This document shows positions 1-19,700 of a DNA stretch of 19,700 nt, in pieces. The stretch lies in the UHGV virus genome UHGV-0129547; one strand, given 5' to 3'. The number at the start of each line of letters is the position of its first letter. Position 1 is the stretch's first letter. The notes under the pieces are model-generated. The model worked only from the letters and a program-made list of their open reading frames with translations. It was not told where the DNA came from and searched no databases. Origin of the DNA: a virus. Position numbers and translations under genes: made by a program.

Positions 1-54
1 ACCAGCGACCTGGCGATTATGAGTCGCTCGCTCTCACCACTGAGCTAAAGGGCC
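1..54 (-). tRNA. Partial tRNA with CAU anticodon (Ile2/Met type); 3' part lies beyond the window start
   Basis: Reverse complement of 1-54 reads GGCCCTTTAGCTCAGTGGTGAGAGCGAGCGACTCATAATCGCCAGGTCGCTGG: acceptor 5' half, D-arm (GCTC...GAGC), anticodon loop CTCATAA (anticodon CAT = plus-strand ATG at 19-21) and start of the T-stem. Resembles enterobacterial tRNA-Ile2 (ileX/ileY type) from memory. T-loop and 3' acceptor are not visible. Confidence 0.6.
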
Positions 55-82
55 GAGCCAAAAAATAATAATCAGATGAAAA

Positions 83-796
83 TCAATAATCAAGCCCTTG
101 CCTGGATACATATCTGTCTGGCGGGAAGCCATAATAGCGGTGAAATACAGAAATAAAGTAGGACCTGCTTGAATAACCGCATTTTTCTGCTATAGCCTGT
201 CCATATCCATGCCGGGAACATAACATATTTACAGCAACACGCATCCGCTCTTCCAGCAACAAGCGACTGAACATGCCCCCTTCATTTTTCAGTTTTGTCT
301 TTAACAAACTCTCACTCATATGCAACTGTAGAGCAATCGCACCAAGCGTCCAGCTTGCTGATATATCTGTCTGAATTATCGCCCTGACTTTGGCACTTAT
401 GCTGGATAAACATCCACTTAAAAACAATGACATCCGTTCATCTGTTTCAAACAGAGACAGGCAGGCCATCATAAGAAACATATCCGTGGCCTCTCCGGAA
501 AATCCCTGGCTGGTAATTAAAGCCGCAGCCAACGCAGGATTGTTGGGTTCCAGCAACAGGTAAAGCGGAATGTCAGTCAGACGAGTCCTCGTCAGCTTAT
601 GCTGACTTTCCAGATATTGACTTACGACGGATTCGCTTATATCGACAATTTTAACTTTGCCATAATGCATAAGGAAAAGCTCCCTGATGCATTTGGTGGC
701 CAGAACAACTGAGCCTGGCTTAAGTGACAACGTATCCTTTTCAAGAAAAATATTAATTGGGGAGCAAACCATGGTAACTGAACAGACAACAGCCAT
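83..796 (-). CDS. AraC/XylS-family transcriptional regulator (AppY/EnvY-like)
   Basis: 237-aa ORF; C-terminal AraC-type HTH signature (...IAEKCGYSSRSYFISVFHRYYGFPP...); N-terminus (MAVVCSVTMVCSP...) resembles prophage-borne AppY/EnvY-type regulators from memory. Confidence 0.8.
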   Translation of the reverse strand: MAVVCSVTMVCSPINIFLEKDTLSLKPGSVVLATKCIRELFLMHYGKVKIVDISESVVSQYLESQHKLTRTRLTDIPLYLLLEPNNPALAAALITSQGFSGEATDMFLMMACLSLFETDERMSLFLSGCLSSISAKVRAIIQTDISASWTLGAIALQLHMSESLLKTKLKNEGGMFSRLLLEERMRVAVNMLCSRHGYGQAIAEKCGYSSRSYFISVFHRYYGFPPDRYVSRQGLDY

Positions 797-918
797 TATA
801 ATTTTACTTTCATTAGCAATTGGTTAGCTCAATTATAGCCCCAAAAGGTAAATTATCATCAACACATAAGCAAAGGACTGACAGGTGTCGCCCCCCCACC
901 AGCCGCCCATTCACCACA

Positions 919-944
919 AATAAAAAGCCTTCAGGACTGAAGGC
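919..944 (-). terminator. Putative Rho-independent terminator (minus strand)
   Basis: Hairpin GCCTTCA-GGAC-TGAAGGC at 927-944 followed on the minus strand by a T-run (plus-strand ATAAAAA at 920-926). It overlaps the last codons of the 65-aa ORF. Confidence 0.4.
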
Positions 945-1128
945 GTCTGTAACAACCGCACTGATAGTCTGCCAGACCCGCCATAACAAGCTGGGTCAGT
1001 ATTAACTGGCAGCGTTCGCGTGAAAGGTAAGTATTCTGCGCAATCTCCCCGACTGTCGCCGGTTCGGTAACGCTTAATTCATCAAACACAACTCTGGCGG
1101 TTTCTGTCATATCCTGCTGTTTCAGCAT
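931..1128 (-). CDS. Small hypothetical protein (65 aa), possibly winged-helix-like
   Basis: ORF with a plausible SD (GGAAAGGG about 10 nt upstream of the ATG at 1128); segment TVGEIAQNTYLSRERCQLILTQLVMAGL looks HTH-like. No confident family assignment. Confidence 0.4.
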   Translation of the reverse strand: MLKQQDMTETARVVFDELSVTEPATVGEIAQNTYLSRERCQLILTQLVMAGLADYQCGCYRRLQS

Positions 1129-1251
1129 GTCTTTTTACCCTTTCCGGTTAACGTGACATACCAATAACTCTTGTCTAAAAAGCCAGCAAGATAAAAAGCC
1201 AGTATTCACGACCACCAGCGTGTTTACTGTACTGCACCAAGTTTACAGGTA

Positions 1252-1277
1252 CAAAAAACCCGCTCAGTGGCGGGTTT
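1252..1277 (-). terminator. Rho-independent terminator downstream of the 205-aa ORF
   Basis: Stem CCCGC(1259-1263)/GCGGG(1270-1274) with a 6-nt loop; on the minus strand the hairpin is followed by TTTTTTGT (plus-strand A-run 1253-1258). A weaker T-run also follows on the plus strand. Confidence 0.55.
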
Positions 1278-1406
1278 AAGTTGTGTGGCGAAGTAACCAC
1301 TCTTAACACACTAATAGCATTTTTGTTATAACACAAGTAGCTCATTCAGTATTTTTAGAATCTTGACTTTCTTAAGCACGGCGAACTCTGAATACCAAAC
1401 ATAAAA

Positions 1407-2024
1407 TCAATTATCTTCCAGGCCGGATGCTATCAACGAAAGCCTCTCAAAAAACGCTGTAGCAGCCTTGTCCAAAGTTGAATAAGTACTGTATTCTCCG
1501 TGTTCGGGACCAACCACTACCCATGGTCGTCTTTTTGGGATTCGGGACTTCTCAGAAATCACTGTTCCAGATATACCAATATCAATTGTTACACCTGTTA
1601 TTATTTTCTCTTCATCTCTTTCCCTGAACTCAATTGCCATAAATGCCGTTTTTTTTCGTTTCCCGTTTTTAAAAAAATCAAATAAAGCAAAGCGATGCTC
1701 ATTAAAATCAACACCCCATCGTCCTTCAGGATAAAGGGCATGAAAGTTGTCATTTACGCTCTGCATCGTCTCATAAGCTTTAACTTCTAAATCTCCATAG
1801 TGCATAGATACCGCGCAGGAGTCACTGGGTAACTGTATTTTCCCAAGATTGAAAACCTTTACTGCTCCAGAACTATGGCATCTTGCCCGCAATTTATCCC
1901 CATTTATACTAATCGGAGAAATATTCCTTAATGTTCCGGGCTGGCTCCCTCCTAAGTAAACGACTGTTAAAGATTGCTTATTTTCAATTGCATCAACTAA
2001 TACATGCTCTACATTTTTACCCAT
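1407..2024 (-). CDS. Hypothetical protein (205 aa from the preferred start), accessory gene immediately downstream of Q
   Basis: Long ORF in an AT-rich segment. Preferred start is the ATG at 2024-2022, preceded by GGGAGG with a 5-nt spacer; the ORF-track start at 2051 has no SD. No recognised family; a weak WYL/SH3-like pattern in the N-terminal 60 residues is speculative. Confidence 0.6.
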   Translation of the reverse strand: MGKNVEHVLVDAIENKQSLTVVYLGGSQPGTLRNISPISINGDKLRARCHSSGAVKVFNLGKIQLPSDSCAVSMHYGDLEVKAYETMQSVNDNFHALYPEGRWGVDFNEHRFALFDFFKNGKRKKTAFMAIEFRERDEEKIITGVTIDIGISGTVISEKSRIPKRRPWVVVGPEHGEYSTYSTLDKAATAFFERLSLIASGLEDN

Positions 2025-2099
2025 AATAACCTCCCAATGAACAGGTATCATCAGGAGGTTATAATAAAATATGATTATTTACTTTGATTGAATTTATTA

Positions 2100-2471
2100 C
2101 TATATGTAACAATCAATTTCTAAAGATACCCCCAACATTGCCAGACAACCGTCAATAAACCCTTCAGCTTTCTGCAGTCTGATAACAACCTGATTAAGTG
2201 ATATCCCCAGTTTTACCCCCAACACCCGTAATGTAACCCCATACACATAATACATTTCCAGTAATTCGTATTGATACGGTTCCTTTTTCTTAAGAACTGT
2301 CATCGCAGAGCTAATGATCAGGCCATCGTCATCGCTACATTGCGGGCGGGATTTTACTTTCGAAGGAATTAATCCCTTAAAACCTGCAGCAACAGATGAC
2401 CATTCCACATCCTCGTGATTATTTGCCACCCATGCCCCCCAACGCTCAAGAACCATCTGAATATCACGCAT
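2100..2471 (-). CDS. quuD: Late-gene antiterminator Q (QuuD-like)
   Basis: From the internal start, the protein begins MRDIQMVLERWGAWVANNHEDVEWSSVAAGFKGL..., matching the N-terminus of DLP12 QuuD / phage-82-type Q from memory. GGAG lies 8 nt upstream of the ATG at 2471. Sits downstream of rusA-ylcG as in DLP12. Confidence 0.85.
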   Translation of the reverse strand: MRDIQMVLERWGAWVANNHEDVEWSSVAAGFKGLIPSKVKSRPQCSDDDGLIISSAMTVLKKKEPYQYELLEMYYVYGVTLRVLGVKLGISLNQVVIRLQKAEGFIDGCLAMLGVSLEIDCYI

Positions 2472-2556
2472 CAACTTACTCCACAAAACTCAGACCAGAA
2501 CGCCAATTACAAGCAAAAATCAACAAAACAGTATTAGTTGATTGTTATCTCTGACT

Positions 2557-2679
2557 TCATACTCCTGCTCCTGTCAGTGTTTTGGCGTAATTCTTCAGTA
2601 TTCGGTAATCGGTCAAAACAGAACCGGGGAAACGATATAAGCGCAGACGCCCCCAGCGGTGGCGAAGAAGTTCTGCCAT
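2557..2679 (-). CDS. ylcG: YlcG-like small protein (40 aa)
   Basis: Manual translation of the minus strand gives MAELLRHRWGRLRLYRFPGSVLTDYRILKNYAKTLTGAGV, which matches DLP12 YlcG from memory; located between rusA and Q. Below the ORF-track size cutoff. Confidence 0.6.
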   Translation of the reverse strand: MAELLRHRWGRLRLYRFPGSVLTDYRILKNYAKTLTGAGV

Positions 2680-2693
2680 ATTAAACTCAAACA

Positions 2694-3056
2694 TCATTCA
2701 TTCCCCATTTCGGTGATGGTCAGTTCCAGCCTCCCACCTTTGGTAACAGGCATCTTCACAACGCGGTAATCAACGACCTGAGCATCATCCAGCCAGAAAC
2801 CTGCTTTAGTGAGTGCGTCAAAAGCGGCTTTTTGCAGATTATCCAGGTCACGGCGACGGCGATCCGGCATGTGGCACTCAATGCGGATTTTCACAGGAAT
2901 AGCCAGGCCGATATCCAGCATTGCGTTTTTAATGATTCGGGCGACGTTATCGCGGTATGCCTGCCCCTCTGCGCTGATGTGCGTGCGCCCGCGATTATGG
3001 CGGTAATAGCGATTATTGCTCGGAGGCCAGGGTAATGTGATGCTGTAGGTATTCAC
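2694..3056 (-). CDS. rusA: Holliday junction resolvase RusA
   Basis: 120-aa [29 protein letters not shown]...[11 protein letters not shown], essentially the E. coli DLP12 RusA sequence as I recall it; GTG start overlapping the ybcO stop (GTGA). Confidence 0.95.
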
Positions 3057-3343
3057 GCCTTAATAACCCCCCCTTTCAGCCAGATAACCTGTGTTCTCGC
3101 CATACCTTCCAGCGCGCATTCTTTTGCATACTCAGCATCGACAAAATGTGTGCGGCGGTCGATTTCGTCGTGACAGGCAGAACATGCAATGGTGGCAATC
3201 AGGTCTGGCGGTTTGATACCGGTACCGCACAATCCAGCCAGCCGGATATGTGCCAGTACTGACGTTTCAGGATTGCCATTACATACGCCAGGGATTCTTA
3301 CCTGGCATTCCCGACCACGCGCTGCTTTTCTCAAATCAGCCAT
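3053..3343 (-). CDS. ybcO: YbcO-like nin-region protein (DUF1364-type putative nuclease)
   Basis: From the internal ATG at 3343 the protein reads [35 protein letters not shown]...[11 protein letters not shown]..., matching DLP12 YbcO from memory; Cys-rich. Its start overlaps the ninE stop. Confidence 0.85.
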
Positions 3344-3506
3344 GATTCCTCCTTGCTGCCAGTCGCAACCATTTTTTATCAACCAGGCTGGCGGTATATC
3401 CGAGCAGTGTTGGTATTTCGGATGGTTTCAGCTCAGGCTTACGCTTACGACTATTTGGTACTCTGTAGATGTGTCCGTTCATGACACGAATAAGCGGTGT
3501 AGCCAT
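3336..3506 (-). CDS. ninE: NinE-like protein (56 aa)
   Basis: Manual translation: [56 protein letters not shown]. The ATG overlaps the ybcN stop (TAATG) and the stop overlaps the ybcO start, the classic translationally coupled nin arrangement. Below the ORF-track cutoff. Confidence 0.75.
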   Translation of the reverse strand: MATPLIRVMNGHIYRVPNSRKRKPELKPSEIPTLLGYTASLVDKKWLRLAARRNHG

Positions 3507-3961
3507 TACGCCTCCTGCTTGTCGCGCAGCAGCTGGAACTCGCAGCTCTGCGGAATAGTCAGGTGGCAGCCAATATTCATCGCCCAGGCTTCAACCTTAC
3601 ACAGGAAGACATACATCTCTCCGCTATCAAGATCGGAGGTATGACGTAATGACTGAATGGTGGTGATTTCACCGGTTACGACATCAACCAGTTCCTTGGT
3701 TTCATAACCGAGATAAGTGTGTTTGAGAGCATCTTTTACCCAAGCTGGAGTGGCGAACGTTTTCCCCCTGCTGATGAGGTATTCACTGATTTCGCTGTAC
3801 CACATGTGGCTGAGTGCATTCTGGGAAAGACTGCGTCTCTCACGCCACGGTTTAAGCACCATGCGAAAGCATTTGCCGTCCTCCAGATAAGGCTGGATCT
3901 GCCGACCGATAGCGGTGAAGTTGCCGCGATGCAATTTGATACCATCTTGTGGGAGGTTCAC
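3506..3961 (-). CDS. ybcN: YbcN-like nin-region protein (DUF1367)
   Basis: 151-aa [65 protein letters not shown]..., matching DLP12 YbcN from memory. Confidence 0.9.
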
Positions 3962-4155
3962 GCTTCACCTCCGCAGAGATCAAACGTTGGATGCAAAATA
4001 TCGCAGGTGCATTTCTGCATCTGTGAATGGAGAAGAGAGGTTAGATTGTATGTGCGCATAAACGTCCCCGTTTAGCGCAGAAGTCACCGGAGTTGTTCAA
4101 GCTCCAATGGCATGATTATGGCTGGTTGATTATGGGAAATCAAATGTGCTGAAAA

Positions 4156-4662
4156 TTAGTCTGCCAAGTCTTCCTCCGTCACAACTGGGTAATTCCAAAT
4201 ATCAAAAAAAGCTATAGCCTCCTGCCATTTGTTCCATAAGTTATCAAGTACTTGTGTAGGTTCCGTACTTTTAAAAACAGAAACAGCCGCATCACCGTTA
4301 TGAACTTCCTCGTACAGTTCCATTATTAGCAGATTAACAAAGTACTGTTTCAACATTAATGCCTGATTACCTTCTTTCTGCTGGCTATCCTGCTTGATGA
4401 TCTCCATCGCCCGTACCAGGCACCTGATGATATCCGCTGCATCATTAACGCTCCATTCAGATCCGCGCTTATCTTTAGCTGATGTATTGGCTCTCTCAGC
4501 GCAAGCCTTTAAAGACTCATAAAGGTAAACTCTATTTTGTAGCTGCAGCGCTTTTTTTGACGTGTACCAACTTGCAAGCGCCGACCCCGCTGCGGCTAAT
4601 GTGCCAAACGCAGAAATGCCTGCTGCTATTGCACTTAAGTCGGCACTGTCAAAGTTCCACAT
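4156..4662 (-). CDS. Hypothetical membrane-anchored protein (168 aa), accessory gene
   Basis: ORF in an AT-rich segment; N-terminal hydrophobic stretch (LSAIAAGISAFGTLAAAGSALASW) suggests one TM helix or signal anchor; the rest is charged and helix-like. Separated from the antirepressor gene by a terminator. No recognised family. Confidence 0.55.
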   Translation of the reverse strand: MWNFDSADLSAIAAGISAFGTLAAAGSALASWYTSKKALQLQNRVYLYESLKACAERANTSAKDKRGSEWSVNDAADIIRCLVRAMEIIKQDSQQKEGNQALMLKQYFVNLLIMELYEEVHNGDAAVSVFKSTEPTQVLDNLWNKWQEAIAFFDIWNYPVVTEEDLAD

Positions 4663-4842
4663 TATCGTTACACCTTATATAAATACCCCTCAGTAATATC
4701 CAATAAGGTATGTGAACAATCAATATAATTTTATCCGTATCGGCACATAGCGATTTAAATGCTACTGGTAATGGTATCTTTTAGATTATTTCGTCCAGTT
4801 TACAGCACCCGTATTTTATGAAATGGACTCGCACATTACCCC

Positions 4843-4881
4843 AAAAAATGCCAGCACTTCCGTTATCGTAGAATGCTGGCA
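4843..4881 (-). terminator. Putative Rho-independent terminator after the antirepressor gene
   Basis: Stem GCCAGCA/TGCTGGC (4849-4881) with a long loop; on the minus strand it is followed by TTTTTTGGGG (plus-strand CCCCAAAAAA at 4839-4848). Confidence 0.45.
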
Positions 4882-4900
4882 GTATTTCTAACTAGTGACT

Positions 4901-5569
4901 TTATTGCAACAGATTCTGACGGAAATATGGCAACACTCTGCTCCACTTATTATCCTGCCAAGGCTGGAGTTTTACATGTGCCGTTTCTCTGGCAAGGATT
5001 TCGCGCGCCTTATGTAGTATCTGGGGATATTCTTGCCCGATAGAAGTAAAGCGACCAGCTTCGCGGTGCTCCGCAACCTGAAGAAGTGGAGTAACATTCT
5101 GGCAGGCGGTTAACATCACATCCCCTGCTCGCCATAACCAAGCAAGTGTGCAAAGTTCGTTATCAGTGAATTGTTTTATGATTGGGGATTGTTGAACTTC
5201 TCGATCGAGAATATCCAGAACCCAACGGCGGAACTCTTTGGCTACAGGAGTGCGGGCGAACATGGCGATCAAATGGGCTCCGCGGAGAGAGAAAACACGT
5301 ACTTTCTTCTTCAAGTTTCGAGTACTTTTCGAGGTACTCAGATCAAGTACCTCGACATCATTCTCTGAGGTACTGACTTCAAGCACTCTAGTCATACTAC
5401 TGGAAAATTCGTCAGCATATTTGTTGTAAATCATCGTGACTGCGCGACTATTCGAATACTTCAGTGCTCTTGCTAGGTTGGATGAAGTTAGCCATATTCC
5501 GGCAATATTTGCCACTGGCACTAGTGCTTCACCTTGGAAGTTCAGATCTGATGTTGCTACAATACTCAT
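4901..5569 (-). CDS. Antirepressor-like protein (Bro-N/KilA-N-type motif)
   Basis: Segment GAHLIAMFARTPVAKEFRRWVLDIL matches the conserved P-x-AK-x-F-x-x-WV motif of Bro-N/antirepressor domains (compare P22 Ant ...SKLPSAKRFKRWV...). Lies immediately downstream of an Arc-like gene and divergent from a Mnt-like gene. Preferred start is the ATG at 5569 (AAGGA 8 nt upstream); the ORF-track start at 5650 has a weak SD and overlaps the arc-like stop. Confidence 0.6.
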   Translation of the reverse strand: MSIVATSDLNFQGEALVPVANIAGIWLTSSNLARALKYSNSRAVTMIYNKYADEFSSSMTRVLEVSTSENDVEVLDLSTSKSTRNLKKKVRVFSLRGAHLIAMFARTPVAKEFRRWVLDILDREVQQSPIIKQFTDNELCTLAWLWRAGDVMLTACQNVTPLLQVAEHREAGRFTSIGQEYPQILHKAREILARETAHVKLQPWQDNKWSRVLPYFRQNLLQ

Positions 5570-5639
5570 GTCGATATTTCCTTCGCGGTTATTTTCGATA
5601 GAAGCCCCTAAGGTTGCCGCCAGTGGGGCTTCGCTGTTT

Positions 5640-5798
5640 CTAGCGAGCATGTATCCGTGCTCTAAATTTCAATGCCCATACAAGCGCCTGAACAATAGCT
5701 GCGTTCTCAGACATCCCTTCCTCCTGAGCAATTCGCTTGAATTCATCCTTCACTTTTTGCGGATAGCGAAGGGTAATTTTTACCTCTTTCTTTTCCAT
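5640..5798 (-). CDS. Arc-like ribbon-helix-helix repressor (52 aa)
   Basis: From the ATG at 5798 (GAGG 8 nt upstream): MEKKEVKITLRYPQKVKDEFKRIAQEEGMSENAAIVQALVWALKF..., with the RHH pattern of P22 Arc (basic N-terminal beta strand followed by two helices). Confidence 0.7.
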   Translation of the reverse strand: MEKKEVKITLRYPQKVKDEFKRIAQEEGMSENAAIVQALVWALKFRARIHAR

Positions 5799-5810
5799 TG
5801 ACATAACCTC

Positions 5811-5875
5811 ATGAGGCCACAATGACACCATGAGGCCATAATGCCACCATTGAATTGATGTGGCAATATGGCACC
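5811..5875. promoter_or_regulatory. Tandem direct repeats in the arc/mnt divergent intergenic region; putative RHH-repressor operators
   Basis: ATGAGGCCACAATGACACC (5811-5829) and ATGAGGCCATAATGCCACC (5830-5848) are adjacent 19-bp near-identical repeats; a third degenerate copy TGGCAATATGGCACC lies at 5861-5875. They sit between the divergent Arc-like and Mnt-like starts. Confidence 0.4.
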
Positions 5876-5897
5876 ATTCATTTTTTTGGGGGTTCCA

Positions 5898-6215
5898 ATG
5901 GCTGACAAACAAGTAAAAGACTACGATAAGTTTAACCTCCGTTTCCCCGATGGGATGCGTGAAGCTATAGCTGAACGAGCCAAACGAAACGGGCGCTCAA
6001 TGAATTCAGAAATCATTCAAATACTCCAAGATGCCATAGAAGGAAGTTCTGAACTATCTAAACGTTTAAATTTAGTTGGGTTTATTCGAGGTGACAGAGA
6101 GATACGTGACCTGGAAGATAATGCAAGCAAACTTGCGTTGTATATCGATCATAGAACACAAGAGTTTAAACAAATTTTATTGGAAGATTTAAAATTACTC
6201 CTTAATCATGATTAA
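5898..6215 (+). CDS. Mnt-like ribbon-helix-helix repressor
   Basis: From the ATG at 5898: MADKQVKDYDKFNLRFPDGMREAIAERAKRNGRSMNSEIIQILQDAIEG..., strongly resembling P22 Mnt (...FNFRMPMEVREKLKFRAEANGRSMNSELLQIVQDAL...) from memory. Confidence 0.75.
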   Translation: MADKQVKDYDKFNLRFPDGMREAIAERAKRNGRSMNSEIIQILQDAIEGSSELSKRLNLVGFIRGDREIRDLEDNASKLALYIDHRTQEFKQILLEDLKLLLNHD

Positions 6216-6259
6216 TGTTAACATTTTCCCAAAATCCAATTGATAGAGGAGTTATTTAT

Positions 6260-6613
6260 ATGCGTATTAAAATCATGCCTCTCCCAAGTACTATCCAAAT
6301 GGGCCAAAAAAAACGGACAACAAGTGCAGCAGTATCCACAACGTTTTTTGGCCCAAATAGTCTTAAACCACAAGGAGATAGCCTTGAAAATACAGCAAAG
6401 AAAAACTCTTCAATTTTGCGAGAAAAAAACTACAGAAAAATTGCTGAAACACTATATAAAACTGGGGTCATAACTATGGCAACATTTGATAGAGAATGTA
6501 ATTTAGGAGGTAAAGACAGAAAGTACTTGCGACATATTTTTTCCCTACTTTTGTCAGAAAAAATCAAATCAAAACAAATCAGAATAACCCGCAAGAAAAA
6601 ACAGAACAAATAA
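6260..6613 (+). CDS. Hypothetical basic (Lys/Arg-rich) protein, 117 aa
   Basis: ATG at 6260 preceded by GAGGAG with an 8-nt spacer, directly downstream of the mnt-like gene; very AT-rich, with a Lys-rich C-terminus (...IRITRKKKQNK). Could be spurious low-complexity coding. Confidence 0.35.
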   Translation: MRIKIMPLPSTIQMGQKKRTTSAAVSTTFFGPNSLKPQGDSLENTAKKNSSILREKNYRKIAETLYKTGVITMATFDRECNLGGKDRKYLRHIFSLLLSEKIKSKQIRITRKKKQNK

Positions 6614-6692
6614 AACGCCAGCGAAAACTTCTCTTTATTTTCATAAGAAAAGAGCATAATTACCAGTTTTCCATATAATCCATAAGTTATGC

Positions 6693-6986
6693 TTATGCTG
6701 TAGTCCTCCCATATACCGCCAACACCCGCTTCATCGCGGCACTCTGGCGACACTCCTTAAAAATCAGATTCGTGCTCACCTTTCCTTCCCGTTCTTCTCT
6801 GGTAGCGAACCGGTAATACACCGTTCGCCAGACCTTACCATCAATGACCAGGATTCCTGCCCGCGCCATTTTAGCCGCAGCCTGATTTATGCTGGTTACT
6901 GTTGCGCCTGTTACCGCGGTAACGTCCTGCGCACAGAAGCTCTTATGCGTCCCCAGGTAATAAATAATTGCCTCTTTGCCCGTCAT
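6693..6986 (-). CDS. ren: Ren-like protein
   Basis: 97-aa ORF MTGKEAIIYYLGTHKSFCAQDVTAVTGATVTSINQAAAKMARAGILVIDGKVWRTVYYRFATREEREGK..., near-identical to lambda Ren as I recall it; located immediately downstream of P with ATGA overlap. Confidence 0.85.
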   Translation of the reverse strand: MTGKEAIIYYLGTHKSFCAQDVTAVTGATVTSINQAAAKMARAGILVIDGKVWRTVYYRFATREEREGKVSTNLIFKECRQSAAMKRVLAVYGRTTA

Positions 6987-7684
6987 ACACTTGCTCCTTT
7001 CAGTCCGAACTTAGCTTTGATTTCTGCGATCTTCGCCAAAGCCTGTGCACGATTTAGAGGTCTACCGCCCATGACAGGAAGTTGTTTTACTGGTTCAGGT
7101 ATAGCCTCACCACGGTTAATTAGCGCGTTCATACAGGACAGTTCATCGGCAGCCTTGCGCCGTAATTCCGCGTCAGTCAACGCATTGGCCCGCATATTCT
7201 GGTACAGGTTGGTAACCAACCAGTAGTGCGCGTTTGATTTCCATGGATAAGACTCTGCATCTGGATACAGGCCACGCTTCCGGCAATACTCGTAAACCAT
7301 ATCAACCAGCTCGCTGGTGTTTGGTAGTCCGGCAATAACGGATGCTTCTTCCCGGCACCAGGCTACAAACTGCCCGGGTGATGGCAGGAATGGTCGATTC
7401 TGCCGACGGGCTACGCGCATTCCTGCGTTAACCTGTTCCATTGTGGTGATCCCGTTTTCCCGGAAAGCCAGAACCCACTGGCGGCGGATTTCGTTCAGTT
7501 CGTTCTGGTCCCGGTTAGCCAGGCTCGCCGGGAAAGTTGCCAGTAACTGGCTGAACACACCATTGATGATCTGCGCTACCTGCTGTACCTGCGGCTTTTC
7601 GTCGTACTGTTCCGGCATGTTGTTGGCGATCCGGCGCATCTGCTCACGGTCAAAGTTAACCATCTGTGCGGCGATGTTTTTCAT
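6983..7684 (-). CDS. P: Replication protein P (DnaB helicase loader)
   Basis: 233-aa ORF MKNIAAQMVNFDREQMRRIANNMPEQYDEKPQVQQVAQIINGVFSQLLATF...AKFGLKGASV, essentially lambda P from memory. Confidence 0.95.
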   Translation of the reverse strand: MKNIAAQMVNFDREQMRRIANNMPEQYDEKPQVQQVAQIINGVFSQLLATFPASLANRDQNELNEIRRQWVLAFRENGITTMEQVNAGMRVARRQNRPFLPSPGQFVAWCREEASVIAGLPNTSELVDMVYEYCRKRGLYPDAESYPWKSNAHYWLVTNLYQNMRANALTDAELRRKAADELSCMNALINRGEAIPEPVKQLPVMGGRPLNRAQALAKIAEIKAKFGLKGASV

Positions 7685-8610
7685 AAATCCACCCCGTAAA
7701 TCCAGTCAGTGTTTGTCAGGTCGAGTTTTGGTTTTCCGGCTGTCACGCCAGCCTGTTGTTTGTTACGATTGATTTCGAGCTGGGTCCACTTGTCGCGAAG
7801 TTTAGCCGGGCTCAGCACGTTACCGGACCAGAAGTTGTCCTGGCATGCCCAGCGGAACAGCACGCACATGTCGCGGTGGTTACGTCCGTCACGTTCACGC
7901 ATCAGGCGGATATCGTTAGCCCACCCTGCAAAATTCGGTTTTCTGGCTGAGGGCGCGATGGTCTTCACCATGTCAAACATCCACTCTGCGGCGGTCAGGT
8001 CTTCTGCTGTCCCCCACTTGCTGCCGCTCTGAATTGCAGCATCCAGTTTCTCCAAAGGAAAGTCGTTTTCTGGCTGGTCAGAGGATTCGCCAGAATTCTC
8101 GGACGAAAAAGGTTTTATATTGTCTTTTGTTAGTTTGTCTTTTGTGTTTACCTGATTCGGGTAAACGCCTTTACCTGATTTGGGTAAACTTTTCTTACCT
8201 GATTCAGGTAAATTTACCTCTTTCAGGTAAACTTTATTTTTCTTACCTGATTCGGGTAATGTTGACCATTCACTGACCACATTATTAATGCCGATATTCC
8301 GCCCACTCTGAATAAAAATCCCACGCTTTACCAGAACGCTTTTTGCAGCAGAACACTTGTGCGGCAATATCCCGGTTAACTCGGAAAGTTGCTCGTTGCT
8401 CACCCAATCCAGTTTTTTATTAAAGCCATATGTTTTGCGCATGACAGCCAGGAAGACCAGAAGCTGGTGCTGTGTTAATCCGGCCAGCATTACAGCTTCC
8501 AGCAACTCATTTGCAATGCGCGTATAACCATCATCGAGATCTGCCACGCGCGGCTCCTTTTGTGCCACATCCGGCACTGGAAAATTGAATATCTCAGCAG
8601 TGTTTGCCAT
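7681..8610 (-). CDS. Replication initiator O-like protein
   Basis: From the ATG at 8610 (GGGAGG 4 nt upstream): MANTAEIFNFPVP...; the central region is encoded by the iteron repeats and the C-terminal domain (...WANDIRLMRERDGRNHRDMCVLFRWACQDNFW...) is lambda-O-like. Overlaps the P start. Confidence 0.85.
   Translation of the reverse strand: MANTAEIFNFPVPDVAQKEPRVADLDDGYTRIANELLEAVMLAGLTQHQLLVFLAVMRKTYGFNKKLDWVSNEQLSELTGILPHKCSAAKSVLVKRGIFIQSGRNIGINNVVSEWSTLPESGKKNKVYLKEVNLPESGKKSLPKSGKGVYPNQVNTKDKLTKDNIKPFSSENSGESSDQPENDFPLEKLDAAIQSGSKWGTAEDLTAAEWMFDMVKTIAPSARKPNFAGWANDIRLMRERDGRNHRDMCVLFRWACQDNFWSGNVLSPAKLRDKWTQLEINRNKQQAGVTAGKPKLDLTNTDWIYGVDL
8121..8261. repeat. Origin of replication: five ~19-bp iterons plus adjacent short direct repeats inside the O gene
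   Basis: Iterons TTACCTGATTCGGGTAAAC (8148-8166), TTACCTGATTTGGGTAAAC (8171-8189), TTACCTGATTCAGGTAAAT (8196-8214), TTACCTCTTTCAGGTAAAC (8215-8233), TTACCTGATTCGGGTAATG (8243-8261), each with internal dyad symmetry (TTACC...GGTAA). They are flanked by TGTCTTTTGT repeated at 8121-8130 and 8136-8145. This parallels the lambda ori arrangement (iterons then AT-rich segment within O). Confidence 0.8.
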
Positions 8611-8696
8611 AATTCCTCCCGCAATGAGTGTGTTACGATTTGCACCTGAAAGTCGGTTCTGTTCGCGCAGACCGGCTTTCGCCATTTCTGAACCTG

Positions 8697-9236
8697 TCAT
8701 ATTGCCCCCAGCATGGTGGTGACCATCGCCATCAGTGGACCAGCCAAATCCGGGTCCACACGAAACATCGACACAATGCCTTCACTCATCTCCTTCAGTT
8801 TCTGGTGGCGTGGTGCGTTGAGAATGACAGCCTGTTTTGCCTCACTGAGTTCCTTTTCCATTTCAGCCAGCCGAGCCATGAAGCTATCCTGCTCAACCAG
8901 GTGGCCGCGATATTTCAGCGGTAGTACTGCCAGAATTGCTGGAGTCAGTTCACGCACGTTATTTCGGTATTTTTCAGAATCGAATTTGTTATCGAGAAAG
9001 CGGAACAGCTTCTGGCGTGCACGACTGACATCATCAGAAAAATCGATAGTGCCGCCGCCCTGTGCTCGATACTCATTCACAATGAGTGCGGCAACGACAT
9101 CCTGATTATCTACAGCCGACCAGGCGCGGATGGCATCACGGATTTTTTCGTGGCCTGGCACCTGTTTTATTTGAGAACGATTTATCACCGCAGTCGGGAT
9201 AAATCCGCTAGTCTGTTGGTATGTAAGTGGTTGCAT
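8697..9236 (-). CDS. YdaT-like protein (Rac-type, cII position)
   Basis: Contains ...RAQGGGTIDF... and ...LTPAILAVLPLKYRGHL..., resembling Rac prophage YdaT (QGGG and IPAILAILP motifs) from memory; located downstream of the Cro-like ydaS-type gene. Start at 9236 or 9242. Confidence 0.65.
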   Translation of the reverse strand: MQPLTYQQTSGFIPTAVINRSQIKQVPGHEKIRDAIRAWSAVDNQDVVAALIVNEYRAQGGGTIDFSDDVSRARQKLFRFLDNKFDSEKYRNNVRELTPAILAVLPLKYRGHLVEQDSFMARLAEMEKELSEAKQAVILNAPRHQKLKEMSEGIVSMFRVDPDLAGPLMAMVTTMLGAI

Positions 9237-9266
9237 AGTCATTGCCTTATCAGTTAACGCCGCAGT

Positions 9267-9494
9267 TTAGGCGGCAGAATTACTCGCGTTAAACAATGGT
9301 GCGAGGTCGGGACGAATATCTGCTGGTTTAATCTTTCCACCAGTGGCTGAGACAATTTTCATTACATAGCGGGCATCAATTCCGCCACCGTGTAGCCAAC
9401 GCCAAACAGTGGGTTGGGCTACACCGCATAGATCTGCCAGTCGTTTTTGACTACCTGTAATACTGATTGCGAGTTGAATGGTTTGATTTGTCAT
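9267..9494 (-). CDS. Cro/YdaS-like HTH protein (75 aa)
   Basis: From the ATG at 9494 (AGGAA 7 nt upstream): MTNQTIQLAISITGSQKRLADLCGVAQPTVWRWLHGG..., an HTH (Q-x-T-V-x-x-W) of the YdaS/Cro-like family; divergent from the CI-type repressor. Confidence 0.75.
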   Translation of the reverse strand: MTNQTIQLAISITGSQKRLADLCGVAQPTVWRWLHGGGIDARYVMKIVSATGGKIKPADIRPDLAPLFNASNSAA

Positions 9495-9525
9495 TATCAA
9501 TTCCTATTGGTATTGCAATGAATGA

Positions 9526-9554
9526 ATAATAGCAATGCGTATTAATCCAAGCAA
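9526..9554 (-). promoter_or_regulatory. Putative PR-like sigma70 promoter (minus strand) with overlapping operator words
   Basis: Minus strand reads TTGCTT (9554-9549), 17-nt spacer, TATTAT (9531-9526), about 30 nt upstream of the ydaS-like ATG. The word AATAGCAAT / CAATAGCAA recurs at 9528-9536 and 9552-9560, and the palindrome ATTGCAAT lies at 9512-9519. Confidence 0.4.
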
Positions 9555-9568
9555 TAGCAAAACGTGTT

Positions 9569-9595
9569 TTGACCATCAATACGCAAGCGTATAAA
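9569..9595 (+). promoter_or_regulatory. Putative PRM-like promoter for the repressor gene (near-leaderless mRNA)
   Basis: TTGACC (9569-9574), 15-nt spacer, TATAAA (9590-9595), ending about 10 nt upstream of the repressor ATG at 9605. The spacer contains the inverted repeat ATACGC-AA-GCGTAT (9580-9593). Confidence 0.35.
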
Positions 9596-9604
9596 TTAAA
9601 ACTT

Positions 9605-10297
9605 ATGAAAAAAGAAACTCTTGCTGATCGCTTAAACCTAGCGATGGAACAATCTGGAATGTCTCAAGGCGCTCTTGCAAAGGCGTCTGGCGTAGCTCAA
9701 CCCACAATCTGGAGACTGACAAGCGGCAACGCGCGCGGCTCAACAAAAATTGTTGAAATAGCTAATGCATTGGGTGTTCGAACAGAATGGCTCTCATCAG
9801 GCATAGGCCCGATGAGAAATGACGGTCAACAATCAGGGAAGCCTGCTGTCAGCCATTCCAAATACTTCAAAATTGACGTTCTTGATATAGAAGTCAGTGC
9901 CGGGCCGGGTGTAATCAACCGTGAGTTTGTAGAAGTTCTACGCTCGGTTGAGTACTCGTTTGACGATGCTCGTCACATGTTCGATGGCAGGAAGGCGGAA
10001 AATATCCGCATCATTAACGTGCGTGGTGACAGCATGTCAGGAACGATCGAACCAGGTGATCTGCTGTTCGTTGATATCACGGTTAAATCTTTCGACGGTG
10101 ATGGTATCTATGCGTTTCTGTACGACGACACAGCCCATGTAAAGCGTCTGCAAATGATGAAGGATAAGCTGCTGGTTATCTCTGATAACAAGAGCTACTC
10201 ACCGTGGGACCCGATCGAGAAAGACGAGATGAACCGGGTGTTCATCTTCGGTAAGGTTATTGGGAGCATGCCGCAGACGTATAGGAAGCATGGGTAG
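9605..10297 (+). CDS. CI-type phage repressor (N-terminal HTH, C-terminal S24/LexA-like peptidase domain)
   Basis: From the ATG at 9605: MKKETLADRLNLAMEQSGMSQGALAKASGVAQPTIWRL... (HTH) followed by ...NVRGDSMSGTIEPGDLLFVD...AHVKRLQ... (S24 Ser/Lys autocleavage module). The ORF-track start at 9569 is a TTG inside the putative -35. Confidence 0.85.
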   Translation: MKKETLADRLNLAMEQSGMSQGALAKASGVAQPTIWRLTSGNARGSTKIVEIANALGVRTEWLSSGIGPMRNDGQQSGKPAVSHSKYFKIDVLDIEVSAGPGVINREFVEVLRSVEYSFDDARHMFDGRKAENIRIINVRGDSMSGTIEPGDLLFVDITVKSFDGDGIYAFLYDDTAHVKRLQMMKDKLLVISDNKSYSPWDPIEKDEMNRVFIFGKVIGSMPQTYRKHG

Positions 10298-10343
10298 CGG
10301 ATTAGCTAATCATTATGATGTTGTTCAAATTTAAGAGGTCCGC

Positions 10344-11192
10344 ATGTCTTCGATTTGGGGAAAAAAGTTGATGACGAAAGAACAAGAGTCAAACACTGAT
10401 GAAGTGAAACCAGAGCAAGGAAGTTTGTTTGAATTAGAATTTCATGAATATACACCTTCAAGCTTAGGCACAGCACACCTTTCTGGTTTCGCTATTGCCA
10501 CTGATGAAATGGAATATGCAGTTAAAAGCATGCGCTCCACCCCACCTTTTCCTGTACAAAACCCAACTCAAGTACCGGCAGCGGAATGGTTTTGCACAAA
10601 TTTAGCTGAAAAATGCGGCATCGCTACACCTGTGTGCAAAATTCTCAAGTGTATTGCTAATGGGGAGTATGTTTTTGGCTCTCGCATAGAGTTTTCAGCC
10701 TGGAAATCTGGTCTCAATAGTCCTCAATGGATAAATTTGCTCTCAAATGCTTCTGAATCCTTAAAGAAGCAACTCTGGGCAATTTATGCATTTGATCAGT
10801 TTGTATATAACATTGACAGACACCTCAACAACTACTTATACATGGAAAACACCCGAGGCAATGTTATAGTTAAAACATTCGATTTTAGTCTAAGCTCTTT
10901 TGTTATAGGCTGGCCACGAAATACCCCTCATATACTACCAACAGACTCCAGTACAACAACAAACTGGACGATTGCTAAACAATTCATTGGCGACACTGAT
11001 GATCTGAGAAAGTGCGCATTATCTGTCCTTGACAAAATTGAAAAAATTGGAGTTGAGGCTATATCTGATATACTTAACTCTATGCCTGAAGCATGGATGC
11101 CACCAATGCATAAGGAGTATTTTTTGAAGTGGTGGGACAGCGAGGAGCGAATCGATAGGCTAAATGCCATAAGACTGGAGATAACATCTTGA
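10344..11192 (+). CDS. Kinase-fold protein with HipA/PI3K-like catalytic loop (282 aa); candidate effector of a lysogen-expressed two-gene system
   Basis: ATG at 10344 with AGAGG 6 nt upstream, 46 nt after the repressor stop. Residues 158-163 DRHLNN (10815-10832) match the DxHxxN / DRHxxN catalytic loop of HipA-like and PI3/4-kinase-like folds; FDFS at residues 179-182 resembles the Mg-binding DFG-like/YDLVS motif that follows it in HipA. AT-rich coding sequence. Much shorter than canonical HipA. Confidence 0.6.
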   Translation: MSSIWGKKLMTKEQESNTDEVKPEQGSLFELEFHEYTPSSLGTAHLSGFAIATDEMEYAVKSMRSTPPFPVQNPTQVPAAEWFCTNLAEKCGIATPVCKILKCIANGEYVFGSRIEFSAWKSGLNSPQWINLLSNASESLKKQLWAIYAFDQFVYNIDRHLNNYLYMENTRGNVIVKTFDFSLSSFVIGWPRNTPHILPTDSSTTTNWTIAKQFIGDTDDLRKCALSVLDKIEKIGVEAISDILNSMPEAWMPPMHKEYFLKWWDSEERIDRLNAIRLEITS

Positions 11193-11995
11193 AAACTTTC
11201 AAATACAGCTTAATCAGAGTTACACCGAACTTAGAGAAAGGTGAAACGATTAACGTTGGTTTGATCGTTTACCATGACTCTGACATAGACGTACGTATGC
11301 TCAATTCAGTTTCAAAACTTAAAGCGATTGACAAAGATCTTACCTTAGATTACTTAGAGGATCTTTCGACCTCGCTTTTTGATTTGTCACAAAAAATCAA
11401 CAATGCTGAACTTCTTCCTTGTCTTTTTAAGGGAGCATTATCGTTATCGTCATTTGGCATGTTCACTCTTCAAGCCAACGAAGATTACGAAGCTAAAGTT
11501 ACTGATCTAATGAATCGGTTAGTAAACCCACAAAAACAGCCACATAAACACTTGAAAAAAAAGGTTTTTTCTGAATTAAAATCCACCTTTATACAACATG
11601 GAATTTTCAGTAAGTATTTTGAAGATCTTTCCCAACATAAAATCGTAGCTAATTATCCAATTAGTAATGAAGAAGGGTTAGTTGCAGATTTTTTGTTAAA
11701 AAATGGCAAATACCATCTTACAGAAACATTAGATTTTCGTTCTGAAAATATAAAAAAACAAATGGGTGAAGCTGCGATAAGTGTTTTAACAATTACTAAA
11801 GCCTACGAATTATACAATTCAAATATTGATTCATTTGTAATTTTTGCCGCTGAAACGACAGCACAAGAAAAGTCAGCAAAACAGCAGCTAAATCTACTGG
11901 AAAAACACGCTGATAATCTTATCAACGCATATAGCAAAGAAGACATGCGTTCATATTACGAAAAGATGCTGAATGCTGCCTCTATGTTACAGTAG
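11189..11995 (+). CDS. DUF3037-like protein (268 aa), partner of the kinase-fold gene
   Basis: TTG start at 11189 overlapping the upstream TGA (T-TGA coupling), GGAG 10 nt upstream. N-terminus ...YSLIRVTPNLEKGETINVGLIVY... matches my recollection of the DUF3037 N-terminal signature (R-x-V-P-x-x-x-x-G-E-x-I-N-V-G). AT-rich. Followed by a terminator. Confidence 0.6.
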   Translation: MKTFKYSLIRVTPNLEKGETINVGLIVYHDSDIDVRMLNSVSKLKAIDKDLTLDYLEDLSTSLFDLSQKINNAELLPCLFKGALSLSSFGMFTLQANEDYEAKVTDLMNRLVNPQKQPHKHLKKKVFSELKSTFIQHGIFSKYFEDLSQHKIVANYPISNEEGLVADFLLKNGKYHLTETLDFRSENIKKQMGEAAISVLTITKAYELYNSNIDSFVIFAAETTAQEKSAKQQLNLLEKHADNLINAYSKEDMRSYYEKMLNAASMLQ

Positions 11996-19608: not shown

Positions 19609-19700
19609 AATAAAAACTTGCAAAATCAATTAGTTTACCCTTAATCCCTGTCACGTTACGCGCGTGGCAGAGGCGTTACGGATTGCTGAAACCGCAACGG

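Follow-up and report, generated by a model that had tools for sequence, protein, structure and literature searches.

Positions 1–930 of the window (the whole 19,700-nucleotide stretch analysed here) very probably form the distal part of a cargo ("moron") module of a lambda-like mlrA prophage, placed after the gene for the late antiterminator Q and ahead of the lysis genes and carrying a PsrB-type regulator together with an ileZ tRNA gene. On the minus strand, Q is followed by a 205-aa ORF, terminators, a 65-aa ORF, a further terminator, a predicted promoter, the psrB-type regulator gene, and ileZ; past the window edge the module would continue with argN, argO, an esterase gene, and genes for lysis and structure. 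Both the Psr regulators and the ileZ-argN-argO tRNAs are already known from lambdoid prophages and have been partly characterised, and the module is an ordinary one.

Position of the module within the prophage

The Q gene is located at positions 2100–2471 on the minus strand (Pfam Phage_antitermQ, 1.5e-47; phrog_79). As the first-pass annotation had noted, a CAU-anticodon tRNA gene cut by the window edge is found on the same strand about 2 kb downstream: positions 1–54 (−) are the first 54 nt of this gene, whose start is 2046 nt 3′ of the Q stop codon. The window stops inside the tRNA gene, and its leftward continuation past position 1 was read from relatives. Nine relatives (L001 and L003–L010) are 99.5–100% identical to window 1–2500 or 1–10796; one of them, L006, matched window 1–2681 at 100% identity. 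The leftward order in these relatives is tRNA(CAU), tRNA-Arg(UCG), tRNA-Arg(UCU), and a nanS-p-type (SASA) esterase gene; next come the lysis genes (holin, lysozyme, and Rz), the terminase gene, and genes for the capsid or portal, with tail genes further on. Lysis and structural genes were found 3′ of the tRNAs in all eight of the eight contigs possessing the identical regulator, and also in complete genomes. The structural modules differ among the relatives (HK97-like in L003, a P22-like portal in L006, and lambda-like in L001), and no complete E. coli genome matches all 19.7 kb, the best coverage being 61%. Since all of the near-identical relatives continue with the same phage gene order, the tRNA gene is considered to be phage-borne, namely the ileZ of an ileZ-argN-argO cluster.

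The true prophage/host junction lies at or just before position 19647, at the opposite end of the window from the tRNA gene. A tyrosine integrase gene of the mlrA (yehV)-inserting type occupies positions 18322–19608 (+; Pfam Arm-DNA-bind_2 and Phage_integrase), and the same integrase gene directly adjoins a 5′-shortened mlrA in two relatives (L001 and L002). The mlrA match begins 38 nt 3′ of the integrase stop codon: positions 19647–19700 (+) are host DNA, identical at 54 of 54 positions to nt 49–102 of K-12 mlrA (3914–3967 in the K-12 reference sequence, where the CDS starts at 3866). The CP-933V/Sp15-type yehV (mlrA) prophages have the same type of integrase and are inserted at the same point near the 5′ end of mlrA; the late-region cargo here is psr in place of stx1, of which no evidence was obtained. 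In strain 19AR1724, the prophage spans from mlrA′ to a 66-nt truncated pseudogene beside btsS, the expected site of the mlrA 5′ end, which puts the psr-tRNA module some 17 kb away from the end with the integrase and some 29 kb away from the opposite one. Judging from the sequences compared, window 1–930 is deep inside the prophage, away from the phage/host junction.

An alternative raised in the first-pass annotation is a prophage/host junction, with the element truncated after Q; the first-pass annotation regarded the window as unable to choose between this and a phage-borne tRNA accompanied by a lysogenic-conversion regulator. In such a reading, the CAU tRNA gene would be a host ileX/ileY-like attachment site, and the AraC gene would belong to the host or to an island. 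tRNA genes are common phage attachment sites, and the window does end inside such a gene, leaving the left flank unseen. However, the related sequences make the choice. The leftward extension that had been proposed, carried out here via the relatives, leads through two more phage tRNA genes to lysis and structural genes and not to host genes, and the right end of the window already holds the integrase junction with mlrA. The junction sequence has no repeat of at least 14 nt elsewhere in the window and none near the tRNA gene (the longest is a 13-mer at 8552). In addition, the tRNA is identical to prophage ileZ copies and differs from the chromosomal ileX at eight positions, and all of the psr copies examined, at about a dozen loci (L001, L003–L012, L016, and L025), sit between Q and phage tRNAs. 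DNA matching window 60–930 is moreover present in 1086 of 5426 complete E. coli genomes (about a fifth), with 777 covering at least 80% of it. A prophage/host junction at the tRNA gene is thus extremely improbable, and the phage-borne tRNA with a lysogenic-conversion regulator is the reading that these observations support.

Identity and predicted function of the regulator

The AraC-family regulator expected ahead of the tRNA gene proved to be a 237-aa AraC/XylS-type protein encoded at positions 83–796 (−). It matched Pfam HTH_AraC (2.3e-13, in two stretches) and HTH_18 (5.8e-10, residues 155–230), both above the gathering score, and it possesses the C-terminal two-HTH domain of about 100 aa by which AraC/XylS proteins are recognised. 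A full-length match to phrog_1450 (8e-98) was also obtained. The protein is identical to ECs_2191 of Sakai prophage Sp11 at 233 of 237 positions (98.3%) and to ECs_1087 of Sakai Sp4 at 214 of 237 positions (90.3%). The two Sakai proteins share 215 of 237 residues (90.7%), which agrees with the 90% identity of PsrA and PsrB given in two published reviews (PMC10877973, PMC8565820). The substitutions relative to ECs_2191 are T8I, A103V, H196Y, and I202V, the latter two being in the C-terminal DNA-binding region. The exact 237-aa protein occurs in public E. coli contigs (24 read and 8 examined, with 32 collection blocks listed).

Sakai Sp11 carries pchB and the effector genes nleG5-2, nleG6-2, and nleG2-3, and these three nleG genes correspond to z2149–z2151 of OI-57, the island said to encode PsrB (z2104). 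Because ECs_2191 lies in Sp11, the counterpart of OI-57, the regulator is, on sequence grounds, a PsrB allele of the Psr family; the link between ECs_2191 and z2104 is one of synteny with nleG2-3, nleG6-2, and nleG5-2, and not of the z2104 sequence itself. The reviews place psrA in OI-50/CP-933N, and the psr genes have been described as confined to prophages that also bear Pch regulators and loci for T3SS effectors. No psr gene was found in CP-933N of the reassembled EDL933 or in Sakai Sp6, Sp10, and Sp12, and the second O157 psr copy was found in Sakai Sp4 (ECs_1087), a psr-bearing prophage that also carries pchA and a tccP2 pseudogene. The part of the present prophage expected to carry such genes lies outside the window, and no Pch regulator or effector locus was seen in the stretches of the near-identical relatives that were examined, the early region of L001 containing only the PerC-family yfdN. 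The window gene resembles psrB and psrA of EHEC O157:H7 in that the same 237-aa protein is encoded after a small ORF, directly before ileZ, and 3′ of Q, with a conserved promoter-like upstream region and a terminator in common. The carriers differ in that the prophage here is integrated in mlrA and has a different Q and an extra 205-aa ORF.

The 65-aa ORF (931–1128, −; phrog_331, 6e-37) possibly encodes a small winged-helix protein, its match to Pfam TrmB being weak (0.003) and below the cut-off. It immediately precedes psr in Sakai Sp11 (as ECs_2192), 86-24, and phiSTEC1575, being annotated in the last of these as "TrmB family"; the counterpart position in Sakai Sp4 is occupied by a 79-aa ORF, ECs_1086. 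The 205-aa ORF (1407–2024, −; phrog_8498, 1.6e-125) is an AT-rich cargo ORF directly after Q, with a GC content of 0.40 and only a sub-threshold Pfam match, to WYL. Neither ORF was matched in PADLOC or NCBIfam. Two terminator-like hairpins follow the 205-aa ORF (1198–1283, −), one at 1219→1198 from the terminator scan and the other at 1283→1252 (AAACCCGCCACTGAGCGGGTTTTTTG) read directly from the sequence, and they delimit the shared psr module: homology ends at 1226 for Sakai Sp11, at 1276 for phiSTEC1575, and at 1308 for Sp4. An Rfam match to STnc130 at 1163–1285 (+) scored 28.3 bits against a gathering score of 55 (E 0.18) and was rejected as chance.

The intergenic stretch 797–930 contains a predicted promoter-like site for the regulator, ATGATA-16-TATAAT (859→832, −; 10/12 in the consensus scan). 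In four psr copies, whose proteins differ by up to 10%, the TATAAT is invariant and the −35 element nearly so. Promoter-like matches in the region as a whole are not above those in shuffled sequence (6 against 6.1 expected), and pR′ could not be placed with confidence, the promoter scan being ambiguous around 2023–2116. The sole convincing intrinsic terminator in window 1–950 (GCCTTCAGTCCTGAAGGC then TTTTTATTTG; 944→927, −) is located at the end of the 65-aa ORF; in phiSTEC1575-Stx2k its stem is kept and its loop is different. This terminator lies upstream of the regulator gene, and therefore the earlier statement that the regulator has its own upstream region and terminator holds for the upstream region but not for the terminator. 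No terminator was found in the 28 nt between the regulator stop codon (83) and the tRNA gene (54), and the folding of 135→55 is not stronger than that of shuffled sequences (z = 0.30). The sole candidate for a terminator after the regulator, at 104→91, was therefore rejected; its stem has only 5 bp and still lies within the coding sequence.

According to the two reviews, which summarise the primary studies of Tree et al. 2011 and Yang et al. 2015, Psr in EHEC O157:H7 directly binds the promoters of gadE and hdeA, increases acid resistance, and acts as a repressor of the T3SS (PMC10877973, PMC8565820). Given the near-identical sequence, the most likely mode of action of the regulator is the one reported for PsrB. 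Its expression in the lysogen would be driven by a promoter of its own, with the terminator at 944–927 shielding it from transcription that enters from upstream, and the protein would bind the gadE and hdeA promoters, thereby switching on glutamate-dependent acid resistance; we infer this promoter use and these DNA targets. In LEE-carrying hosts, the raised GadE/YhiF would lower type III secretion. The host here, unlike EHEC, may be LEE-negative, and the output would then be limited to acid resistance.

Two other views of the regulator were weighed against a PsrB-like function. The first-pass annotation called it AppY/EnvY-like, and if it were an AppY or EnvY orthologue, it would control the AppY regulon (hya, app/cbd, respiration, and RpoS stabilisation). 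The likeness is real at the family level: the regulator belongs to the same AraC subfamily as AppY (of DLP12) and the chromosomal acid-resistance regulators GadW, YdeO, and GadX, with the same domain layout and, in AppY, YdeO, and GadW, the same N-terminal MxxVCSV motif. All of these proteins are reported activators of gadE/AR2, and AppY is likewise prophage-borne. Close kinship is not supported, however, as the identities of the regulator to these proteins are only 28–35%. The regulator is 28.6% identical to AppY over 238 aligned positions and 39.9% identical to EnvY in an alignment that covers the C-terminal 138 residues only, so that orthologue-level identity over the full length was found with neither. 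GadW, the closest K-12 protein (34.8%), and YdeO (30.7%) are at least as close as AppY; the NCBIfam YdeO model gave 105.6 bits against a cut-off of 348; and the PsrB orthologue is 98.3% identical. Furthermore, AppY is located at the far end of a defective prophage, outside the Q-tRNA slot. We consider orthology with AppY or EnvY highly unlikely. The accompanying suggestion of an AppY-like rewiring of the host nevertheless pointed in the right functional direction, since AppY, PsrB, and PatE have all been reported to switch on the gadE acid-resistance regulon.

The other view is that the regulator acts mainly on the phage, for example on the late genes, the neighbouring cargo ORFs, or the tRNA promoter, and that the effects on the host are incidental. 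The gene's location within the late operon, after Q and ahead of the lysis genes, the overlap of its 3′ end with a promoter-like site for the tRNAs, and the 65-aa ORF that travels with psr are consistent with this view. Yet a 98%-identical protein is reported to have host targets (gadE and hdeA) and host phenotypes (PMC10877973, PMC8565820). Moreover, psr is missing from many lambdoid prophages with the same Q-tRNA-lysis layout (Sakai Sp6, Sp10, and Sp12), and it is therefore dispensable for phage functions. A regulator devoted mainly to the phage is accordingly a very improbable reading.

The CAU-anticodon tRNA gene and its cluster

The truncated gene at positions 1–54 (−) is assigned as an ileZ-type (tRNA-Ile2-like) tRNA. 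With truncation handling, which this edge tRNA needed, Rfam gave a tRNA match at 54→1 (−) of 35.3 bits (E 5e-5; gathering score 29), covering model positions 1–52 of 71 with the 3′ end cut. ARAGORN found no tRNA in the window because the gene is truncated, and it recovered the whole gene at seven related loci. Over all of its 54 nt, the fragment agrees with the start of the full-length gene in L006, which in turn is identical at 76 of 76 positions to Sakai ileZ4, Sakai ileZ5, and the phiSTEC1575-Stx2k tRNA; the window fragment likewise shows no difference from the O157:H7 Sakai ileZ copies. The genes for tRNA-Arg(UCG) and tRNA-Arg(UCU) are next to ileZ in L001, L003–L006, L008, and L011, and L007 ends in the first tRNA. 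The Sakai annotation names the identical genes ileZ1/4/5/6 and also lists argN and argO, argN having been lost in Sakai Sp10 and Sp11.

The earlier analogy with the ileZ-argN-argO cluster was therefore apt. Such a cluster is reportedly carried by Stx phages such as 933W. The sequence is identical (Sakai ileZ4/5), and the slot between Q and the cargo or lysis genes is common to 933W and Sakai Sp4/Sp5/Sp10–12. In the inducible phage phiSTEC1575-Stx2k, the order is also the same (Q, AraC, three tRNAs, and then stx2k). Unlike in the Stx phages, stx is absent 3′ of the tRNAs in the closest relatives, where the esterase gene comes after a gap of about 500 nt.

The anticodon CAU (CAT in the gene) would also suit an extra elongator tRNA-Met, reading AUG and not AUA. 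ARAGORN called the gene tRNA-Met, and the RefSeq labels for identical genes are split between tRNA-Met and tRNA-Ile. However, the comparison with the chromosomal copies, which had been proposed earlier, showed that the full-length tRNA is 89.5% identical to K-12 ileX and 67.5% identical to metT/metU. The acceptor stem has C4-G69 and C5-G68 as in ileX (C4 and C5 are seen in the window, and G68 and G69 in the identical full-length relatives), whereas metT/metU have U4-A69 and A5-U68. TilS reportedly uses these two pairs, C4-G69 and C5-G68, to tell tRNA-Ile2 from tRNA-Met. Among the eight differences from ileX, one is compensatory (C6-G67 to U6-A67), though 27-43 becomes an A-C mismatch. With the curated Sakai annotation as ileZ in addition, an elongator tRNA-Met seems quite unlikely, and the gene is best regarded as ileZ.

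We infer a lysidine modification of this tRNA and a codon-supply role: the three phage tRNAs would read AUA (after putative lysidine modification), CGA, and AGA/AGG, codons that are rare in E. coli and frequent in the cargo. In psr, 5 of the 14 Ile codons are ATA and 6 of the 13 Arg codons are AGA or AGG. Rare codons number 4.6 per 100 in psr against 1.3–1.7 in O, P, rusA, and ybcN, and 7.8 per 100 in the 205-aa ORF. The cluster probably has its own promoter and would also be read through by Q-modified polymerase in lytic growth. The predicted promoter-like site, TTGATT-17-TATTAT (65–93, −; 9/12 in the consensus scan), overlaps the 3′ end of the regulator gene. Its TATTAT, located 10–11 nt ahead of the start of the tRNA gene, does not vary among six prophages. 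Two of the six, Sakai Sp10 and Sp12, have no psr and unrelated upstream DNA, yet retain a TTGnnn at the 17-nt spacing, as read by eye.

Distribution and implications

The genomes that match window 60–930 include human extra-intestinal and commensal isolates. This, together with the 1086 matching genomes, suggests that the prophage-borne gadE acid-resistance switch is far more widespread than the EHEC literature would suggest. The module has little weight as a discovery but is useful for annotation. The product labelled "helix-turn-helix domain-containing protein" can be named a PsrB-type regulator, and the CAU tRNA, which part of RefSeq has as tRNA-Met, can be named ileZ (tRNA-Ile2-like). The prophage can also be placed at mlrA, where the insertion itself inactivates a curli/biofilm regulator.

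A bolder idea is that the regulator and the tRNAs form a functional unit, in which the phage tRNA supply could gate translation of the regulator and hence the acid-resistance switch. Such a unit is suggested by two features. One is the predicted sigma-70-type promoter of the tRNA cluster, which here overlaps the last psr codons and is kept in six prophages whatever lies upstream. The other is the loading of psr and the neighbouring cargo ORFs with precisely the ATA, AGA/AGG, and CGA codons that these tRNAs would read. We regard this idea as rather unlikely. If it is true, the PsrB allele would be purely an acid-resistance booster in non-LEE hosts such as ExPEC.

Gene content downstream of Q and identity of the tRNA

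The late antiterminator gene Q (2100–2471, minus strand; Phage_antitermQ, 1.5e-47) is followed on the same strand by a 205-aa AT-rich ORF (1407–2024; phrog_8498), a 65-aa ORF (931–1128; phrog_331), a 237-aa AraC/XylS regulator (83–796), and a tRNA gene with the anticodon CAU that is cut at the window edge (54→1). The tRNA starts 2046 nt from the Q stop codon, as the first-pass annotation had described (about 2 kb downstream of Q, same strand), with the regulator upstream of it across a gap of 28 nt. In the regulator, Pfam recognised the paired helix-turn-helix motifs of AraC/XylS proteins (HTH_AraC, 2.3e-13; HTH_18, 5.8e-10). The Rfam tRNA model matched 54→1 at 35.3 bits (gathering score, 29; E = 5e-5) over model positions 1–52, with the 3′ end flagged as cut by the window edge, and ARAGORN missed this gene in the window because of the truncation. 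The GC content from Q to the tRNA is 34–46%, compared to 51–54% in the adjoining nin genes, as expected for acquired cargo. The promoter scan gave no confident placement of pR′ downstream of Q.

The 205-aa ORF, directly after Q, has a GC content of 0.40 and the highest rare-codon load of the window (7.8 per 100 codons). Its only match is phrog_8498 (function unknown); Pfam WYL was below threshold, and RefSeq sometimes labels the ORF "WYL domain-containing". At 2029–2060 (minus strand), its ribosome-binding site (GGGAGGTT) is able to pair with AACCTCC 18 nt upstream, and a hairpin masking this site just after Q is possible.

The full-length tRNA gene, taken from a public E. coli contig (L006) that is 100% identical to the window over 1–2681, coincides with Sakai ileZ4 and ileZ5 (76/76). 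In the inducible phage phiSTEC1575-Stx2k, where three tRNA genes lie ahead of stx2k, the first of them is again identical. Identity of the full-length gene to K-12 ileX is 89.5% (8 differences, one of which is the compensatory change of C6-G67 to U6-A67), compared to 67.5% to metT and metU, which encode elongator tRNA-Met. The phage tRNA and ileX share C4-G69 and C5-G68, whereas tRNA-Met has U4-A69 and A5-U68. Ikeuchi et al. reportedly found in 2005 that the C4-G69/C5-G68 pairs let the lysidine synthetase TilS tell tRNA-Ile2 from tRNA-Met. The label tRNA-Met, assigned by ARAGORN and part of RefSeq, derives from the anticodon alone; judged by these sequence features, tRNA-Ile2 is much the more likely identity.

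Identity of the regulator

The best K-12 matches of the regulator were GadW (34.8% identity, full length), YdeO (30.7%), and AppY (28.6%), together with GadX and EnvY, for which the alignment was confined to the DNA-binding domain. The NCBIfam YdeO model scored 105.6 bits (cut-off, 348). The earlier description as AppY/EnvY-like thus captured a subfamily resemblance but not orthology, and the proper comparison is with PsrB rather than AppY. The close relatives of the regulator are prophage genes. Of 5426 complete E. coli genomes, 1086 contain DNA matching the gene and its upstream region (60–930), 777 of these at ≥80% coverage, and O157:H7 usually has two copies. In Sakai, these are ECs_2191 on prophage Sp11, with the 65-aa ORF before it and ileZ5-argO5 after it, and ECs_1087 on Sp4, followed by ileZ1-argN1-argO1. 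The original annotation of both genes used an internal start; an N-terminal MxxVCSV motif common to the regulator, GadW, YdeO, and AppY supports the 237-aa reading. The window protein is identical to ECs_2191 at 233 of 237 positions (substitutions T8I, A103V, H196Y, and I202V) and to ECs_1087 at 214, and the two Sakai proteins share 215 (90.7%).

PsrA (z1789) and PsrB (z2104, OI-57) are prophage-encoded AraC-like regulators with 90% mutual identity (PMC10877973, PMC8565820), and nleG2-3, nleG6-2, and nleG5-2 (z2149–z2151) lie at the end of OI-57, according to the same reviews. Since Sp11 likewise carries nleG5-2, nleG6-2, and nleG2-3, together with pchB, and since the identity between the two Sakai proteins matches that of the PsrA/PsrB pair, we conclude from this synteny and identity that ECs_2191 is PsrB and that the window encodes a PsrB allele. 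The reviews place psrA on OI-50/CP-933N (PMC10877973, PMC8565820). No AraC gene is present between Q and the esterase gene in the reassembled EDL933 CP-933N or in Sakai Sp6, and ECs_1087, beside pchA in Sp4, is the second O157 copy. The assignment of psrA to that island in the literature may stem from the 2001 assembly.

Position of the module within the prophage

The first-pass annotation had left two readings, a phage-borne tRNA with a lysogenic-conversion regulator or, if the element is cut off after Q, a prophage/host junction. The exact 237-aa protein is present in at least 24 public E. coli contigs, and eight loci encoding it are 99.5–100% identical to the window over the shared lengths; three of the related loci match 1–10796 at 99.7%. 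Wherever the loci extend far enough, the tRNA(CAU) is followed by tRNA-Arg(UCG), tRNA-Arg(UCU), an esterase gene of the nanS-p type (SASA/DUF1737), holin, lysozyme, Rz1, terminase, and head genes. Window 1–2514 occurs in 27 complete genomes (99.3–99.6% identity). In strain 19AR1724, the module lies inside a prophage of about 47 kb, at distances of about 17 and about 29 kb from its two ends. These ends are a 5′-shortened mlrA, beside the integrase, and an unnamed truncated pseudogene of 66 nt that adjoins btsS, where the mlrA 5′ end would lie. A host junction does exist in the window, but at the opposite end: 19647–19700 is identical to nt 49–102 of K-12 mlrA (54/54), starting 38 nt past the integrase stop (19608). 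No repeat of the junction sequence of at least 14 nt was found elsewhere in the window, and the refuting outcome named in the first-pass annotation did not occur. The continuation in the relatives, the mlrA junction at the right end, and the lack of a junction repeat together contradict the junction reading, and the phage-borne reading was right. Integration was at mlrA (yehV), and the tRNA is not the attachment site.

In the window (19609–19700) and in two relatives with the integrase beside mlrA, the prophage interrupts mlrA after gene nt 48. MlrA is an activator of csgD and curli, and RefSeq still names the shortened remainder in relatives "MlrA". No relative matches the whole 19.7 kb (best coverage, 61%), and the structural modules differ among relatives. 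Directly after the cI-like S24 repressor gene (9569–10297), 10344–11995 (plus strand) holds two overlapping ORFs, one encoding a 282-aa HipA-like kinase (Pfam HipA_2; weak PADLOC PDC-M03A) and the other a 268-aa DUF3037 protein (PADLOC PDC-M66B, 2e-8). In an O157:H7 relative, this position is taken by a SIR2-family gene, and the segment resembles a slot for exchangeable defence or cargo genes.

Cassette structure, and proposed expression and function

The sole good intrinsic terminator in 1–950 (944→927, minus strand; GCCTTCAGTCCTGAAGGC then TTTTTATTTG) lies at the end of the 65-aa ORF. The initial observation was otherwise correct, but the terminator is upstream of the regulator, not downstream: none was found between the regulator stop (83) and the tRNA (54), and the folding of 135→55 was at the level of shuffled sequence (z = 0.30). 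Between the terminator and the regulator ATG is a promoter-like site (859→832, minus strand; ATGATA-16-TATAAT, 10/12 matches). In four copies encoding proteins that differ by ≤10%, its −10 element is invariant, its −35 element nearly so, and the full 160-nt upstream region 96% conserved. A second site (TTGATT-17-TATTAT, 93→65, minus strand) overlaps the psr 3′ end. TATTAT, 10–11 nt before ileZ, does not vary across six prophages. Among them, Sakai Sp10 and Sp12 (within 25625–25720 in L015 and 40857–40952 in L017) lack the regulator and have unrelated upstream DNA, and TTGnnn at the 17-nt spacing is kept. This conservation suggests that the phage tRNA cluster has a promoter of its own. We infer both promoter assignments, the scan itself showing no excess of promoter-like sites (6 found, 6.1 in shuffled sequence). 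Rfam also gave a weak hit to STnc130, a Salmonella sRNA, at 1163–1285 (plus strand; 28.3 bits; gathering score, 55; E = 0.18). This hit is probably due to chance; it overlaps a hairpin (1252–1283) that could terminate in either direction.

Homology with other prophages begins just upstream of the tRNA and ends at 1226 (Sakai Sp11), 1276 (phiSTEC1575-Stx2k), or 1308 (Sakai Sp4), at the terminator hairpins after the 205-aa ORF, and prophages without psr share with the window only the tRNA and 4–14 nt before it. The small ORF, terminator, psr, and tRNAs thus behave as a cassette swapped among lambdoid phages with different Q genes, which agrees with the region downstream of pR′ having been described as a site of moron insertion.

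ATA accounts for 5 of the 14 isoleucine codons of psr, and AGA/AGG for 6 of the 13 arginine codons. Rare codons number 4.6 per 100 in psr and 5.6 in the integrase gene, compared to 1.3–1.7 in O, P, rusA, and ybcN. The cargo uses codons read by the three tRNAs. An old proposal is that these tRNAs aid translation of phage cargo, and the codon match, a correlation only, fits it. All components belong to described families and are already known; the conserved promoter-like site overlapping psr and the psr/tRNA codon match seem mildly new.

PsrA and PsrB raise GadE and YhiF expression, which represses type III secretion; PsrB, which binds at the promoters of gadE and hdeA (−132 to −45 in the latter), improves survival at pH 2.5–3.5 and passage through the mouse stomach (PMC10877973, PMC8565820). 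AppY and PatE, two further prophage AraC proteins, feed into gadE. With 98% identity, the window allele would act as PsrB does. In the lysogen, psr would be expressed from its own putative promoter, which the upstream terminator would shield, and after induction Q-modified polymerase would also read through psr. In phiSTEC1575-Stx2k (7643–10324), a 91%-identical psr immediately precedes the three tRNAs and stx2k. Because that phage is inducible, Psr regulators are also carried by active Shiga-toxin phages.
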